Positions 15,129-22,600 of a DNA stretch of 32,000 bases are shown here, piece by piece. Position numbers and translations under genes: made by a program. The stretch lies in contig JAFGBS010000026.1 of the NCBI GenBank assembly GCA_016933055.1, positions 14,211-46,210 of the forward strand, given 5' to 3'. This stretch comes from Promethearchaeota archaeon (GTDB lineage: Archaea; Asgardarchaeota; Lokiarchaeia; Sigyniarchaeales; Promethearchaeaceae). The notes beneath the pieces are model-generated. The model saw nothing but the letters and a program-made list of their open reading frames with translations. It made no database searches and had not been told where the DNA came from. Positions within the stretch are counted from its first letter, which is position 1. Every line of letters starts with the position of its first letter.

Positions 15129-16091
15129 TTAATCAATACTAGCGTTGTAAAGATGATCTAACTGCGTTATAGCGATTTCTTGATTGATTTGCTTTCTTTC
15201 CATCTTATCCATGACAATATTGACAAGATATTTAGGTATAAATCGTTTCAACTTTACGTCCGTGAAAATTACATAATGTGGTTCGGGTTTAGTCTCAATT
15301 TTTCGAAGATATCGGTTGCTTAATAATTTATTGACTATCTCCTCTTCTGCAAATTCTAAAATTTGTTCCATTGTGAGAGGTTTTTTCCGTAATTCATAGA
15401 ATAGCTTCTGATATTTAAAATCTGAAAGAATACTCATTCCCATCTGCATTTCACGTAGTAAAAATCCTGGATCATCAGTTACACGAGTTTTATAGATTGT
15501 CAAAAATTGTTTTACACTCTTTTTATATTCACTATGGTATTGGAGGAATTTTTCATTTGTTGATAAATATTTATCCGTTAGTTTCGAGGGGATTCTAAAA
15601 ACAATGAAATCTCCCACTAGATAATAAACCTCATGAAAAGTGTTTTTCAGAAAATTGAATTGAATTAAACCAGCTCTGATCAGTGGAATAAGGAGAAGAT
15701 TGAACTCAGCTTGAGAAAAATCTTGCATCTCACTCATTATTTTGAAAAGTTCGTCATCCTTTAGTGGACCGTTCCGTAAATTCTTGTAGATTTCATATCT
15801 TAACGGGTCGTTATAAATTGCATTCAATGCTTCCAGTTCAGTCATACGGTTTAACACTTGGATTTCCCGATTTTTCTCCCTTGCAATTTTCACATCACTA
15901 TATGATCTGGCATCCCTTACATTAAGGTGATAATCAAGGAATAACATTAGGGCATGCTGAGGATCTCCATGAACATCAACATAGCCAAAAGGGTATGACT
16001 CCCGATCCTCGGCTAAATCTGCTGGAACAATCACCTCAACTTGTTTATCGCAAATATTACAGAACGCGCTAATTGATTTTGTTTTTGTCAT
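15129..16091 (-). CDS. Hypothetical protein with N-terminal CxxC/His module and helical C-terminal domains
   Basis: FCNIC...YPFGYVDVHGDPQHALMLFLD N-terminus; GGAGG Shine-Dalgarno adjacent to the stop of the upstream large gene (11-nt gap), suggesting an operon. Confidence 0.7.
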   Translation of the reverse strand: MTKTKSISAFCNICDKQVEVIVPADLAEDRESYPFGYVDVHGDPQHALMLFLDYHLNVRDARSYSDVKIAREKNREIQVLNRMTELEALNAIYNDPLRYEIYKNLRNGPLKDDELFKIMSEMQDFSQAEFNLLLIPLIRAGLIQFNFLKNTFHEVYYLVGDFIVFRIPSKLTDKYLSTNEKFLQYHSEYKKSVKQFLTIYKTRVTDDPGFLLREMQMGMSILSDFKYQKLFYELRKKPLTMEQILEFAEEEIVNKLLSNRYLRKIETKPEPHYVIFTDVKLKRFIPKYLVNIVMDKMERKQINQEIAITQLDHLYNASID

Positions 16092-16102
16092 TTGATGTCC
16101 TC

Positions 16103-19100
16103 CTATAGTAATTGATCAATCTCCTTGTTGATTATATCTGAAACGAGTGCATCTCTTGTGAATTCTGTGCGGTTTTTTATTTTTGGCAAATTCAGCAAGT
16201 TTTTCTTGATAAAACTTACGTTTCGTTGAAACTTAGATAATTTAATATAGCGATTGTAAATGAGCAGACTCATCACTCCAAGTAGTGCCGTACCTGCAAC
16301 AGAACCTGCTATCCACCAATATAGATTCCAATTTTGGGGAACAACTACCGTAATTAGGAAAGATTCATCCTCTCCATTTGGATTCGTAATTCCGATATGT
16401 AAACTATATGGATTGATCCCAGGATTCAAACCGAATTGATCCAAGTTAATTGAATAGGTTCCATTTTCCAATGAGATTATGTTTCCCGCAATACCATCAA
16501 TGTACGAACTTATGTTAGCATCAGTTACATACACTCCATGACTCGAATCATAAACTGTGATATAGACCATATTGGAACCCCCCTCAGATAGAATTATGCT
16601 ACTTGACGATAGCGTGACCTCAAAAACAACAGGTTGAATTTGGATGTACAAATTATATATTTGCGTTTGTACACCAGGTGCCTGAGCAAAGATTTGACTG
16701 AAATATATTTTTGGTTGTAAATCGGAAGTATCAAAATCCATAGTGTAAGCAGTTCCATTCCACATCAAAGTACCTTCGATATCTCCGATTAAGGTAATTG
16801 TTCCACCACTGAAACTTAAACCGTTAACACGATAATCCACACTGATTGTTACTTGATCACCCACGAAGAATTCTACCGGTTCATCATTTAATAAAAATAA
16901 TTCTGATGATACAGGTTCGATTAAAACCGTAACGAACAGACTTCGGGTTTCAAAACCTAATCTACTGATTTGAATTATAACAGTATATTGACCTAAATCA
17001 AGACCGGTGGTATCAAAGTCTATAAAGAATTCGTCATTTAGTTCTGTTATATTTGAATTTTTTAACCATGTAACGATGCAGCTTGCACCACTGATTAGAG
17101 TACCTGTATCGAAATAGGTGTAGTTTACTTTTATTGAAAATATTTCACCTTGTTCAATTGTGATTAAATTTACATTTCCCTCGATAACAGTGGATATGGG
17201 ATCTACCAATACTGTAATAAATACATTCTTTGTTTCAAAACCCGTTTTATTTAATTGAATTGTTGCAGTATATTGATCTAACGTAAGATCCGTTGTATTG
17301 AACAGTATTTCGAAGCCATCTGTTACGGGAGTGATTTCATAGTATTTCACCCATGTCACTGAACACGTTGCACCTGAAATTATTGCTCCCCCGTAATATT
17401 CAGTATAATTGACTTTAATTGAAAATTGATTCCCTTGAGATACTCGAATGAAGGTTCTATTAGCTGCGATTGCAGTCTGAACCGGATTAATCAATACTGA
17501 GATGATTATGCTTTTAGTTTCATATCCTGATTTATTTAGGTTTATAAAGGAAGTGTATTGATCCAAGGCTAACCCAGTTGTATCATAATCAATAATGAAC
17601 TCATCCCCGATAACAGTAATATTTGTATCCAATGTCCATGTTACAGAGCAAGAGGCGTTTACTATAAGAGTTCCTAAACCAGTATCGGTATAATTTACTT
17701 TAACACTGAATGGTGTGCCTTGAGAAATCTCAATAAATGTCGCATTTGCTTTAATTATTGATTGAATCGGATTTACTTGTAACAGAACAATATCAGATGC
17801 TACACTGTAATTTGTTTTATTAGCTTCAATATTAATTATAAAAGTTTCCGGAAATGAACCAGAGGTGACTCCATACGTTGATACGTTCAATTGATAAGAA
17901 CCATTATTGTAATTGGTTATTTCATAGGGTGCCATCCAGTCAGTTGAAATATTTGCTGGATGTAAATACGCTTCGGAAATATCTCCTGTTAAATTAAATT
18001 CAAATAGTCCATATGAATTCGCAGATACAATGTTAACTTGTCTGGGAACTTCCAAAATCATTCCTTCCCTTTCAATATTAAGCTGTACCATATTGGACGC
18101 GGTTTGATTTATATAATATGATTTTGAAGCATTAAATGACAGGTAATAATCTGTATAGTCCAGTAGACTTGTATCCAAATCTAGAAAATAATAACCTGAG
18201 CCTATGTATTGTAAATAACCCGTTTGTTCAAATGTGGAGTTGTATTCCACCGTAGCAAGATCGATGCCTTGCCCGGTATCTGTATCTTCATACTTTACAA
18301 TAATCAGTAAGGGTTCACCTGGAACAGTTTCAATTATAGAATCTTGAGCTGTTAATTGGGTATGGTGTATTACGCTGAAATCAAACGTTCTGTAACCTAC
18401 TTTATCTACATACGAAGCGGATAAATTATTAGTCCACGCAACTTCTGCAGTATACATCCCAATCGACATATTAAAGGTTCCGATTGTGAAGTTTCCGTAA
18501 TATATTTCAGTGGATGATGGTTCAAAAGATTCTTCATAAAATATTGTCCCATTAGGATGGTATAAAGTAAAATTGATAAGTGTGTTCGTGAATATAACCG
18601 TGTTGTTTATGTTAACTCTGATATGAAACTCTTCATTCACGTAGAAATCCGATTTCTCCTCAAAAGAAACTCCATTCCAAAATTCCAGTTTCACTTCATC
18701 AAACCAACTTTTACTACGTGCTTGAATCTGCCAGTCTCCATTAGAATAAACGCTGGTGGGAATAGTAAAATCTGTTGTTCCATATCCAATATCTGTGCAA
18801 ATTGATGTTCTATTTGTCAAAAAAGGATCTACTGCACTTATTATCTGCCAATCTTCTGGTTTTTCTATTTCGATCCATCGATACAAGTAAGTCACAGGGA
18901 TGAGGGGAGAGACATCAAATTCCCATAAAATATCATTTGAATTTGTAAAAATTCCATCTTGAAATGTAGAAAAGGATGAATTAATACTTTGTGTTAAATT
19001 AGCTGATATCGTTAGCTTATCAATTAAGATCGTATCATAAATACTATCACTGATAGTAAAACTAACATCTTGAGTTACTGGATAATTTTTTTGCACATTT

Positions 19101-20041
19101 ATGGTAAAATTACCCATACCAGGAGTAGAATTTTGATAATAATATACTGTACTATCATCAATATCTCTAGCAGTTAAAATATTCGGTTCATCTACAAGGG
19201 TCCAGATATTGTATTCAATATAGTCGAAATGTACATCGTTTGGTGATCCTCTATAAGATGCATCACCATTGATATAGACTCCTAATCGGAATTCAACGTC
19301 ATTTGGTAGAGTTTGATTCCCTATCGGGTTGTTCGATAAGTAATATTGGATTGAATTGCTATAGAAATAATCATAATTTAATGTACCAAATCCATAGGTT
19401 TGGTTATATTCTACTCCTCCAATGATTATTGCCGCATATAAATAAGCCGTATTATAAGCTCCATTATTATCACGAATTCGATAATCAAATGTAAACTCAA
19501 CTATTCGATCTCCAACATCTTCCTCATCCACTGTCACAGATTGATTATAATATGCATAATCCCCCGCAGTTAATGCTTCATCTCCAACATCTAAAGACAA
19601 TATATCTGCACGATAATCTGGATTTAAAGAATCTGATCCACTATCTAACTCATTATAATCCCAATACGTATAAGGAGTTCCGTAATCTCCCCCAGAATTA
19701 ACACGCCCATCGATCACTAAATTTCGATATCTTGTTACATTTTCACACTCAATTAGTAGGTTGTTTGCTGTCCAACCACTAGATAATGTAAAGGATGCTG
19801 ATGTTGTAGGATTTACCTCGTAGGTAGATGAAATCGCAGTTGCATGTTGTGTAACTTGAAAACGTCTAGCAGAACCCTCAAATATTGAACTATTAGGAGT
19901 TTCTTGTTCGTTGTAATAAAATGAAGGCTTAACAAATTTATCAGTGGTTTGAGTTGAAAAAATAGTGCATATAACAAGTAAGATTGATGTTAAAAAGATT
20001 ATTTTCCTAGTAATACGTTTTATTTCATTCAATCTGATCAA
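16103..20041 (-). CDS. Large single-pass surface protein with Ig-like beta-sandwich repeats
   Basis: N-terminal hydrophobic signal, N-x-S/T-rich ectodomain, three 95-aa repeats, C-terminal TM (WWIAGSVAGTALLGVMSLLIY) and a short basic tail. Confidence 0.8.
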   Translation of the reverse strand: MIRLNEIKRITRKIIFLTSILLVICTIFSTQTTDKFVKPSFYYNEQETPNSSIFEGSARRFQVTQHATAISSTYEVNPTTSASFTLSSGWTANNLLIECENVTRYRNLVIDGRVNSGGDYGTPYTYWDYNELDSGSDSLNPDYRADILSLDVGDEALTAGDYAYYNQSVTVDEEDVGDRIVEFTFDYRIRDNNGAYNTAYLYAAIIIGGVEYNQTYGFGTLNYDYFYSNSIQYYLSNNPIGNQTLPNDVEFRLGVYINGDASYRGSPNDVHFDYIEYNIWTLVDEPNILTARDIDDSTVYYYQNSTPGMGNFTINVQKNYPVTQDVSFTISDSIYDTILIDKLTISANLTQSINSSFSTFQDGIFTNSNDILWEFDVSPLIPVTYLYRWIEIEKPEDWQIISAVDPFLTNRTSICTDIGYGTTDFTIPTSVYSNGDWQIQARSKSWFDEVKLEFWNGVSFEEKSDFYVNEEFHIRVNINNTVIFTNTLINFTLYHPNGTIFYEESFEPSSTEIYYGNFTIGTFNMSIGMYTAEVAWTNNLSASYVDKVGYRTFDFSVIHHTQLTAQDSIIETVPGEPLLIIVKYEDTDTGQGIDLATVEYNSTFEQTGYLQYIGSGYYFLDLDTSLLDYTDYYLSFNASKSYYINQTASNMVQLNIEREGMILEVPRQVNIVSANSYGLFEFNLTGDISEAYLHPANISTDWMAPYEITNYNNGSYQLNVSTYGVTSGSFPETFIINIEANKTNYSVASDIVLLQVNPIQSIIKANATFIEISQGTPFSVKVNYTDTGLGTLIVNASCSVTWTLDTNITVIGDEFIIDYDTTGLALDQYTSFINLNKSGYETKSIIISVLINPVQTAIAANRTFIRVSQGNQFSIKVNYTEYYGGAIISGATCSVTWVKYYEITPVTDGFEILFNTTDLTLDQYTATIQLNKTGFETKNVFITVLVDPISTVIEGNVNLITIEQGEIFSIKVNYTYFDTGTLISGASCIVTWLKNSNITELNDEFFIDFDTTGLDLGQYTVIIQISRLGFETRSLFVTVLIEPVSSELFLLNDEPVEFFVGDQVTISVDYRVNGLSFSGGTITLIGDIEGTLMWNGTAYTMDFDTSDLQPKIYFSQIFAQAPGVQTQIYNLYIQIQPVVFEVTLSSSSIILSEGGSNMVYITVYDSSHGVYVTDANISSYIDGIAGNIISLENGTYSINLDQFGLNPGINPYSLHIGITNPNGEDESFLITVVVPQNWNLYWWIAGSVAGTALLGVMSLLIYNRYIKLSKFQRNVSFIKKNLLNLPKIKNRTEFTRDALVSDIINKEIDQLL
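16919..17773 (-). repeat. Three tandem 285-bp (95-aa) intragenic repeats
   Basis: Units start at 17773 (NPIQS), 17488 (NPVQT) and 17203 (DPIST); shared QG..FS.KVNYT, A.C.VTW, TT.L.L.QYT and G(F/Y)ET. Confidence 0.9.
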
Positions 20042-20258
20042 AACCTTACAATTTTTAGATTTAATTTTTTGGATATAGTATTCCTTTACCTAAACCTTTT
20101 CTCTTCAAAAATAATACTTAAGCTAAATTGGAACTTATAACACTAAAGAACCTCATGGATTCTTATCAATTATCACAAATCAATTATTGTAGTTCAATCA
20201 ATCTCATATTATTCTAAAGAGAAACTGTTATAATCTTTATTTCCATTCATGATGCAAG

Positions 20259-20771
20259 ATGAAGGATAAATTCGCTATGGTAGGCACAACAATCAATGAA
20301 TTTGCTCTTCCTCGCTATTCAGATGATTCCACCAGAACACCCATAAATATTCGGAGCTTCAAAGGGTTAAAAAATGTTATGGTAGTATTACTTCGAGACA
20401 TTAAATGACCATATTGCCGAGCTCATATACGCAGTTTGGCTAAAGATTACAGTAAGTTTATTGAGTTGCACACAGAAATTTACCCCATCTTGGTAGATAC
20501 GATGTCACATGCAAAATCTATGTATAAAGCTTATGCAAACAGAACATTTCCAATCTATTATGATACAAACGATGAGAAAATTACAAAAAACGTATTAAAT
20601 CAAGAATTTAAAATATTCCGTTTGGGTAGAATGCCTGCGTTACTTATTGTAGATAAAGAGCAAATTATCCAATATGCCTACTACGGGGATAATATGAAAG
20701 ATATACCAGAAAATGATGAAATTCTATCATTCCTCAAAGATTTGAATAAAAATATCACTGAATTGGGTTGA
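20259..20771 (+). CDS. Selenocysteine-containing peroxiredoxin-like (AhpC/TSA, thioredoxin-fold) protein, UxxC, 170 aa
   Basis: ATG 20259 is in frame with track ORF 20436; the only interrupting stop is TGA at 20406-20408 (codon 50) in MVVLLRDIK-U-PYCRAH, the position of the first redox residue. The upstream part VGTTINEFALP...NIRSFKG.KNV is a normal AhpC/TSA N-terminus, and GRMPALLIVDKEQIIQYAY is the usual C-terminal strand pair. Confidence 0.85.
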
Positions 20772-20782
20772 TATTGACAGAA

Positions 20783-20831
20783 AATTAGCATGAAGTTTTT
20801 ATCAAAAGATCTAGCCATGATCCTCCTAATT
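20783..20831 (+). promoter_or_regulatory. Candidate eukaryote-like SECIS element in the 3' UTR
   Basis: AATTAG/CTAATT helix I; AUGAA (20790-20794) / UGAU (20818-20821) core; apical AAAA loop (20804-20807). Helix II is short and imperfect (6 of 9 positions pair). Confidence 0.6.
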
Positions 20832-20843
20832 CAACTTTACCCC

Positions 20844-20856
20844 TTTTTCTTTTTTT
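20844..20856 (+). terminator. Oligo-T tract after the SECIS candidate
   Basis: TTTTTCTTTTTTT directly after the hairpin; oligo-U tracts are the known archaeal termination signal. Confidence 0.4.
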
Positions 20857-20994
20857 AATATATTATCATTCAATACATAAAATTAGATAAACCAGATTGC
20901 TTTCTACAATCATTTTCGTACGAAAAAAAAGTACGTGAAAAAAAAGATTTCAGTTAAAATTTGCTCAGATTGATACTTAGTGGATAGAATGTTC

Positions 20995-21252
20995 TTAGTA
21001 GTAGCTTACCCATCCTCTAGATTCTCGTTGGAAGGGTGCTTTTTCAGTAACAACAACGTTACGTGCTTCTAAACCTTTAGCGGTTTCTTCAACTTCATAT
21101 TCTACTTTATCATTTTCATTCAAAGAAGCAAATTCGCCCTCTTCTACTTGAATAGCGCTGTAGTGGACGAACACATCCTTTTCTCCCTCATCAGGGGTGA
21201 TAAAACCATAGCCTTTCCGACTATTAAACCATTTAACAATACCAGTTGCCAT
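20995..21252 (-). CDS. cspA: Cold-shock domain protein (CspA family), copy 1
   Basis: [15 protein letters not shown] (RNP1) and DVFVHYSAI (RNP2). ATG at 21252 preferred over GTG 21261. Confidence 0.92.
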
Positions 21253-21370
21253 ATATTTCACAATTTATTATTTTAATTACAGTAGATATAAATGAAAAAT
21301 AGAATCGAAAAACCACAATTGTCATGAAGGATGCTTAGCATCCAATATCGTACAAAAAATGTGACTGCTT

Positions 21371-21477: not shown

Positions 21478-21792
21478 TTAGTAGAATGTATCCCATCGCT
21501 TGATCACAAATGGGGCTTCTTTGGTAATTACTACATTTCTGGCTTCTAAACCCCTATCAGTTTCTGCGATTTCAAACTTTACTTCGTCCTTTTCATTCAG
21601 CGTTCGAAATTCGCCTTCATCAGCAACAATGTTACTGTAATGGACAAAAATGTCCTTTCCATTTTCTGATGATCCATCGGGAGTGATAAATCCATATCCC
21701 TTACGGGTGTTAAACCACTTAACCGTTCCATTCTGAATCTCTTGTGGCGATTCAGTTGTTTCTGTTGACTCTGTTTCTGGTTCTATTGACAT
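21478..21792 (-). CDS. cspA: Cold-shock domain protein (CspA family), copy 2, acidic N-terminal extension
   Basis: [15 protein letters not shown] and [12 protein letters not shown] at 21792 preferred over GTG 21801. Confidence 0.92.
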
Positions 21793-21921
21793 ATATTTCA
21801 CAATTTGTTTACTTAATATTTTAATTAATTTTTTAGGTATAAATAAAATCTAGATAAAAATCATAACTGCTTTTTTGTCGGTTTTATCTAACCAACAAAT
21901 GTTTAAAACAAAATTATGTTG

Positions 21922-22021: not shown

Positions 22022-22600
22022 TTAAATAGAAGAGTTAGCTATCTTACTTTTAAACTCTAACATATCTTTAGCCATACTGGTAATAACCTCATTTACCATT
22101 GTGCCTGTTTTTGAGGATGTAAGATAATGTTTTGAGATCTCCAGTTTAGTTTTGAGATCTTGAATATTTGAATCTAGAATTGGCTTGAAATGTTCATTTA
22201 GTGTATCATGTTTTGCTCCAATTAGGTATAGAGGTGTATTTTTATGGGTATTCTGTTTCCAAATGCTAACCCATTCTGATAAATTATCAATAGTGCGAAT
22301 TCGGGATAAATCAAATAAGAGCAAAGCCCCATCCGCACCAGTAATATAATGTGGTAATATAAAACGAAATTGGCTCTCTCCACCCAGATCCCATACTGCG
22401 ACATCTACTTTAATAGGTTCCTCCTTATCGTCATCTAAAACCAAGTGTATTAACTGAAAATCAATCCCGATAGTCATCTTAGTGGCATTATTGAATCTAC
22501 CAGTAGCTAACCGTTCAACAAATGTACTTTTACCAACTCCCCCATCTCCGAGCATGCATAGTTTAAGAATATATTTTCGGGATTTGGGGGATTTTATCAT
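22022..22600 (-). CDS. Ras-superfamily small GTPase (Rab/Roc-like)
   Basis: G1 GDGGVGKS, G2 MTIG, G3 WDLGGE, G4 GAKHD, G5 TSSKTG; no C-terminal prenylation cysteines. Confidence 0.92.
   Translation of the reverse strand: MIKSPKSRKYILKLCMLGDGGVGKSTFVERLATGRFNNATKMTIGIDFQLIHLVLDDDKEEPIKVDVAVWDLGGESQFRFILPHYITGADGALLLFDLSRIRTIDNLSEWVSIWKQNTHKNTPLYLIGAKHDTLNEHFKPILDSNIQDLKTKLEISKHYLTSSKTGTMVNEVITSMAKDMLEFKSKIANSSI

Follow-up and report, generated by a model that had tools for sequence, protein, structure and literature searches.

A UGA-containing peroxiredoxin-like gene of a Lokiarchaeial genome and the probable SECIS at its 3' end

Does the in-frame TGA of prxL, a peroxiredoxin-like (Prx-like) gene in a Lokiarchaeial (Asgard) genome, specify selenocysteine (Sec), and which signal would direct its insertion? 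The gene lies in the window, by which we mean the whole 32-kb stretch of DNA that was analysed. An earlier note on this DNA had described a hidden selenoprotein, in which a 111-aa ORF extends in frame through a single TGA to an upstream ATG and gives a UxxC Prx-like protein. Using a combination of comparative, structural, and RNA-based searches, we found that TGA conservation, the predicted fold, and the Sec machinery of the genome all support a UGA-encoded Sec in such a protein, and we hold with high confidence that prxL is a genuine selenoprotein gene. By inference, codon 50, a UGA, is almost certainly translated as Sec. The features of the locus are collected in Table 1.

Table 1. Features of the prxL locus and its surroundings, in window coordinates.
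Feature	Position	Strand	Basis
prxL, Prx-like thiol/selenol oxidoreductase with U50-P-Y-C53 redox box	20259..20771	+	Frame, Pfam, AF2, Foldseek, identical published sequence
In-frame UGA (U50), first position of the UxxC box	20406..20408	+	TGA column conservation
Cys53 codon, sole Cys of the protein, presumed resolving residue	20415..20417	+	Alignments
Terminating UGA of prxL, within the P2 5' strand as UUGA	20769..20771	+	Sequence, fold, covariance model
Three-way-junction RNA, probable SECIS	20758..20834	+	Model R1, fold, covariation
P1	20759-20767 with 20825-20833	+	Minimum-energy fold and R1 alignment
P2, apical loop 20779-20794	20768-20778 with 20795-20805	+	Minimum-energy fold and R1 alignment
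P3, loop UAGCCAU	20808-20811 with 20819-20822	+	Minimum-energy fold and R1 alignment
T-rich tract T5-C-T7 just 3' of the RNA element, putative archaeal transcription terminator	20844..20856	+	Sequence only
Cold-shock-domain (CSD) gene, downstream of prxL	20995-21261	-	Domain match
Second CSD gene	21478-21801	-	Domain match
Ras/Roc-family small GTPase gene	22022-22600	-	Domain match
1312-aa ORF, upstream	16103-20041	-	No Pfam match at E<=0.001
320-aa ORF, upstream	15129-16091	-	No Pfam match at E<=0.001

Reading frame and conservation of the in-frame UGA

The frame proved to be exactly the one that had been proposed. A single frame of 170 sense codons runs on the forward strand from the ATG at 20259 to the TGA at 20769-20771, with a translation that starts MKDKF, and its sole internal TGA (20406-20408) stands in the context LLRDIK-TGA-PYCR. 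Calling with table 11 splits the gene into two ORFs, one of 49 aa (20259-20408) and one of 111 aa from a TTG (20436-20771), as the earlier note had expected of standard gene callers. These two ORFs, like the absence of a canonical AUGA/GA SECIS core (discussed below), would suit a TGA that is a real stop, either in a broken gene or with only the 111-aa ORF from TTG 20436 expressed. We consider this highly improbable. The 111-aa ORF would miss the first strands of the fold and the entire redox box, and the 49 codons 5' of the TGA are conserved like those 3' of it. Mean identity to the window protein among 30 homologues was 50% on the 5' side and 52% on the 3' side, which indicates the same constraint on both parts.

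We searched for prxL in six frames in 60 related genomes and in the window's own genome. The gene was present in 38 of the 60 (39 of 61 when its own genome is counted), and the TGA was found in all matches that span residue 50 in these 38 other genomes. This excludes a sequencing error, and a nonsense mutation would not persist at one column in so many genomes. An alignment with homologues, which had been proposed as a check, gave the same result, with a TGA in the same column in all 30 homologous genes extracted from related-genome loci. Moreover, the Pfam domains AhpC-TSA (PF00578, E 3e-14) and Redoxin (3e-9) align through the TGA, over residues 8-139. The continuity of the AhpC-TSA domain and the 30 conserved TGA codons together show that the continuity of the frame is not due to chance. 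Two distant orthologues (G016:C198:26449-26931 and G018:C391:20755-21234) contain two TGAs within the match; the second could belong to a UxxU box or be a terminal stop included by read-through.

The neighbours of prxL do not suggest an operon, and the gene appears to be monocistronic. Besides the two CSD genes and the small GTPase gene listed in Table 1, a gene for an MFS transporter lies downstream on the opposite strand, and a P-type ATPase gene lies upstream in addition to the two ORFs listed there. An A/T-rich, TATA-like stretch can be read from the DNA letters alone ~20-30 nt 5' of the prxL ATG.

The selenocysteine pathway and the genetic code of the genome

The earlier note had made its proposal depend on the presence of Sec machinery in the genome. 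We searched the assembly (3.76 Mb in 36 contigs, 91% complete) and recovered this machinery, namely a tRNA-Sec (66 bits in Rfam, and called by ARAGORN as tRNA-SeC with anticodon TCA, that is UCA), SepSecS (343 bits), SelD with one in-frame TGA of its own, a KTI12/PSTK-like kinase, and a SelB/EFSec-like GTPase. The kinase scored 133 bits against TIGR03574, which is below the equivalog cut-off, and matched Pfam KTI12 at 6e-34. The GTPase is an EF-Tu-type protein of 495 aa whose 229-bit match to the selB model is well above its paralogues and below the NCBIfam equivalog cut-off of that model, which is bacterial. A vhuD gene with a TGA is also present in the genome, as is likewise a [NiFe(Se)] hydrogenase large-subunit gene (frhA).

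A second way to explain the in-frame UGA is that it is read as Trp or Cys, through near-cognate read-through or a variant code. This would agree with database entries in which Trp occupies the TGA column, as it does in full-length relatives from a large metagenome protein database (P0002-P0026). The sole entry checked, P0002, was called 'with_TGA=W', so its Trp comes from gene calling with code 4. Such calling on short contigs creates false 'WPYC' proteins in which Trp is placed wrongly at the Sec position. In the genome itself, TGA is the stop of 327 of the 1654 ORFs of >=300 codons (~20%), prxL among them, and thus there is no genome-wide reassignment of TGA. Given these stops, the complete Sec pathway of the genome, and its further selenoprotein genes with a TGA (selD, vhuD), a Trp or Cys reading is scarcely credible, and we retain Sec as the residue at codon 50.

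A three-way-junction RNA at the 3' end of prxL

We built a covariance model, R1, from 25 homologue 3' elements with the window left out. When run against the 32-kb window, R1 gave a single match (20758-20834 on the forward strand, 45 bits, E 3e-8), and the minimum-energy fold of this element consists of the same three helices as the model. R1 also recognizes the element that follows L063, an unrelated homologue from a metagenome (44.8 bits). The structure common to the homologues begins ~0-55 nt after the stop, where found. Its P1 is typically GAUUUGG paired with CCAAAUC, P2 has 9-10 bp and an A-rich loop of 11-16 nt, and P3 is short with the loop UAGCCA(C/U). In an alignment of 28 sequences, 95% of the cells were paired and compensatory changes were seen in 17 of the 22 pairs, values that are to be read in the light of the alignment having been fitted to the model. 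None of 500 shuffles matched the pairing and covariation values of the element, and slid registers reached at most 54% paired. Four homologues (L029, L044, L048, and L050) responded weakly to R1, with 18-20 bits or with the element unmatched; by eye, their elements have the same three helices and different sequences.

The coding region of prxL in the window is ~10 codons longer than that of most relatives and enters the RNA element. P1 begins within the last prxL codons, and a UUGA that includes the UGA stop stands at the foot of P2. The fold of 20769-20960 alone was unconvincing (z -1.25), and the element emerges only when the last coding bases are included. Rfam gave no match at the gathering threshold across the whole window and only noise at E<=10 over 20200-21100. 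A manual reading in which P1 was AAUUAG/CUAAUU and P2 was lost was overturned by the covariance-model alignment.

A bacterial-type SECIS was sought in the coding sequences of 30 genes, and the 60 nt that follow the UGA held no consistent hairpin (mean z +0.2). We thus take the three-way junction as the SECIS of prxL, and we call it probable, rather than more than that, because the strict AUGA/GA core is missing. As defined by Mariotti et al. (2016; PMC4989117), the strict lokiSECIS has AUGA immediately 5' of a stem of 9 bp, an A-rich loop of 11 nt that ends in G, and then GA or AA directly on the 3' side. Our scan for this AUGA-stem-loop-GA/AA pattern was negative in the window and in 25 of the 30 homologue 3' regions, and the five matches among these regions were weak, A/U-rich alternatives. 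At the positions of the strict core, the window has UUGA for AUGA and, in the conserved register, UC on the 3' side. At its foot, P2 has two Watson-Crick pairs that covary in the homologues.

A looser, eSECIS-like type I model for Asgard archaea calls for GA_[G/A]A, a 7-15-bp stem with at most 2 mismatches, and an 8-20-nt loop (PMC11227280). The only fit of the window to this model consists of (UU)GA, a stem of 12 bp with 2 mismatches, a loop of 12 nt, and GA, and 19 of 50 shuffles of the same stretch likewise produce a hit. The register of this fit borrows bases 1 and 2 of P3 and so competes with this helix. Every attempt to place a kink-turn by hand, at J1/2, at J2/3, and outside P1, failed.

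A separate hairpin farther downstream, CGTAC-GAAAAAAAA-GTACG (20928-20946), occupies the space between prxL and the CSD gene, which are convergent. Read as RNA (CGUAC-GAAAAAAAA-GUACG at ~20928-20946, with AUCA on its 5' side), it was considered as a SECIS candidate and rejected, as it lacks the core G, lies beyond the T-tract, and falls between convergent genes. This hairpin probably serves the CSD gene as its terminator region, since the A-runs that flank it on the forward strand read as T-runs on the reverse strand.

The SECIS elements that follow vhuD and frhA in the same genome are of the standard kind and have an AUGA, an arm of 8-9 bp, a GA, a small GC-rich hairpin, and a closing helix. 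In these vhuD and hydrogenase elements (L057:1310-1440 and L062:1150-1290, both on the reverse strand), the closing helix encloses the SECIS hairpin and the small hairpin together, which makes a three-way junction and not a simple lower stem. The prxL element has the same P1-P2-P3 layout as those of vhuD and frhA, with a closing helix, an arm whose apical loop holds a run of A, and a small side hairpin, all placed at the stop. It further resembles lokiSECIS and Asgard type I elements in its position directly after the stop, which it overlaps here, and in its arm of ~9-11 bp, whose apical loop holds an A run and has AG at its end. In contrast to the vhuD and frhA elements, it has UUGA at the position of their AUGA. 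It also differs from lokiSECIS in this UUGA core, in the base of its arm, which is Watson-Crick paired and covarying in the homologues, and in a side-arm loop that is the almost invariant UAGCCA and not a short GC-rich hairpin.

These differences could mean that the junction is not a SECIS at all and serves as a terminator, a stability element, or a protein-binding element, with Sec insertion directed otherwise; the missing AUGA/GA quartet and the near-invariant P3 loop UAGCCA, which has no known role, both speak for this view. We nonetheless regard this as unlikely. The junction is the sole conserved structure found adjoining prxL, it keeps its place ~0-55 nt after the stop wherever it was detected among the homologues, its layout is shared with the vhuD and frhA SECIS, and the coding sequence offers no consistent post-UGA hairpin in its stead.

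If the junction is indeed the SECIS, one could go further and suppose that the XPYC subfamily of PrxL uses a variant that lacks the kink-turn (AUGA/GA) core altogether, with recoding through a three-way junction armed with UAGCCA. This proposal is tentative and, in our judgement, doubtful. In the literature we found no description of a three-way-junction SECIS with a UAGCCA side arm and without AUGA/GA, and a full-text search returned no paper on a three-way-junction form of SECIS in Asgard archaea. We know of no SBP2 in Asgard archaea.

Fold, published relatives, and proposed mechanism

An AlphaFold (AF2) model computed from the alignment has a peroxiredoxin fold (mean pLDDT 92.6, pTM 0.89), and the best Foldseek matches are peroxiredoxins with a TM of ~0.8. 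In the model, U50 is placed immediately N-terminal of the active-site helix (51-62). The first redox residue of thioredoxin-fold enzymes usually lies right before a helix. The nearest solved structures by sequence are the archaeal Prx/BCP proteins 2ywn and 2cx3, with weak similarity (E 8e-4); in these alignments U50 takes the place of the Thr in TxxC, and C53 falls on the peroxidatic Cys. The window protein therefore shares its fold and the position of C53 with the BCP/PrxQ peroxiredoxins but lacks the Pro and Thr of their PxxxTxxC signature and has Sec at the Thr position. In the test for a typical peroxiredoxin, this signature was absent, the corresponding residues being R-D-I-K-U-P-Y-C.

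Positions 50 (U) and 53 (C) are the only redox positions of the protein, which has no Cys outside the box. Among the extracted homologues, the residue three after the TGA is Cys in 21 of 30, Ala in 7, and Ser in 2. One of those without Cys at this position, L051, has no Cys anywhere when read through, and Sec would thus be its sole redox residue. From the replacement of C53 in 9 of 30 homologues and from L051, we infer that Sec50 would be the catalytic nucleophile and C53 a dispensable resolving residue.

The orthologues with a U-P-Y-A/S-K box form a subgroup (L034, L038, L040:295-768, L042, L043, L049, and L051-L053). We found no published discussion of UxxA or UxxS variants, although such sequences are present in the PMC11227280 data set. 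Tandem prxL paralogues occur at L040:295-768 and L040:1501-1977, one with UxxA and one with UxxC, and a separate three-way junction accompanies each of them (91.5 and 89.3 bits).

The earlier note had stated that Sec-containing Prx-like proteins were reported in Lokiarchaeota, and the literature bears this out. Mariotti et al. (2016; PMC4989117) described Prx-like (PrxL) selenoproteins from Lokiarchaeota, and a later study reported Prx-like selenoproteins in 43% of the Asgard genomes that use Sec (PMC11227280; ISME J, 2024). The protein was not hidden, however. An entry in the supplement of the latter study, Lokiarchaeia_GCA_016933055_U, has the same sequence as the window protein throughout its 170 residues, where X marks position 50, so prxL has already been published as a selenoprotein, apparently from the same assembly, and there is no difference at the protein level between the two. 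The label of this entry and the NCBI names given to truncated homologues (Lokiarchaeota, Promethearchaeota) assign the genome to Lokiarchaeia. The closest homologue, of the L025 type with the motif XPFCRRH, is in the same data file, and the supplement contains 43 XPYCR, 8 XPFCR, 4 XPYAK, and 3 XPYSK motifs. Like the Asgard PrxL proteins, the window protein combines an AhpC/TSA fold with U-x-x-C in place of T-x-x-C, a TGA in its orthologues, no Cys outside the box, and a host Sec pathway, of which PSTK and SelB score below equivalog cut-offs.

PrxL.1 and PrxL.2 of Lokiarchaeum GC14_75 have a Prx fold without Thr-x-x-Cys, Sec as the first residue of a CxxC-type box, no Cys outside this box, and an insertion signal at the 3' end (PMC4989117). 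The window protein shares all of these features, namely fold, Sec-first box, lack of other Cys, and a probable 3'-end signal. The PrxL.1 and PrxL.2 genes were reported with a precise hairpin of AUGA, 9-bp stem, 11-nt loop, and GA (PMC4989117), whereas prxL of the window has no such precise AUGA...GA hairpin. Judged by motif, a different subfamily of the 2024 data set, with W-U-S-H-C-K or W-U-H-Y-U-K, seems to correspond to PrxL.1/PrxL.2.

We propose the following mechanism for prxL expression. The UGA at codon 50 would be decoded by Sec-tRNA(Sec), which would be made by the archaeal/eukaryotic route through SerRS, PSTK, and SepSecS, with selenophosphate from SelD, and the SelB/EFSec-type factor would deliver it. 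The three-way junction ~350 nt downstream, a structured element in the 3' part of the mRNA, would direct the decoding, and its P2 arm, with an A-containing apical loop ending in AG, may be the counterpart of the upper stem in Lokiarchaeal SECIS elements. Translation would end at the second UGA, the stop, which lies inside the junction. The predicted product is a protein of 170 residues with a peroxiredoxin fold, in which U50-x-x-C53 stands at the N-terminal end of the active-site helix. Sec50 would act as the nucleophile and Cys53 would resolve it via a selenenylsulfide, and the chemistry would presumably be that of a thiol/selenol oxidoreductase or peroxidase.

As both the family and the exact protein are published and therefore already known, the gene itself adds nothing scientifically new. 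For genome annotation, it is a further case of a selenoprotein truncated by standard gene calling. The part with residual value is the RNA at the 3' end of prxL, which bears on how Asgard archaea recognize SECIS elements: the probable insertion signal of this PrxL subfamily is a three-way junction supported by covariation and without the textbook AUGA/GA core.
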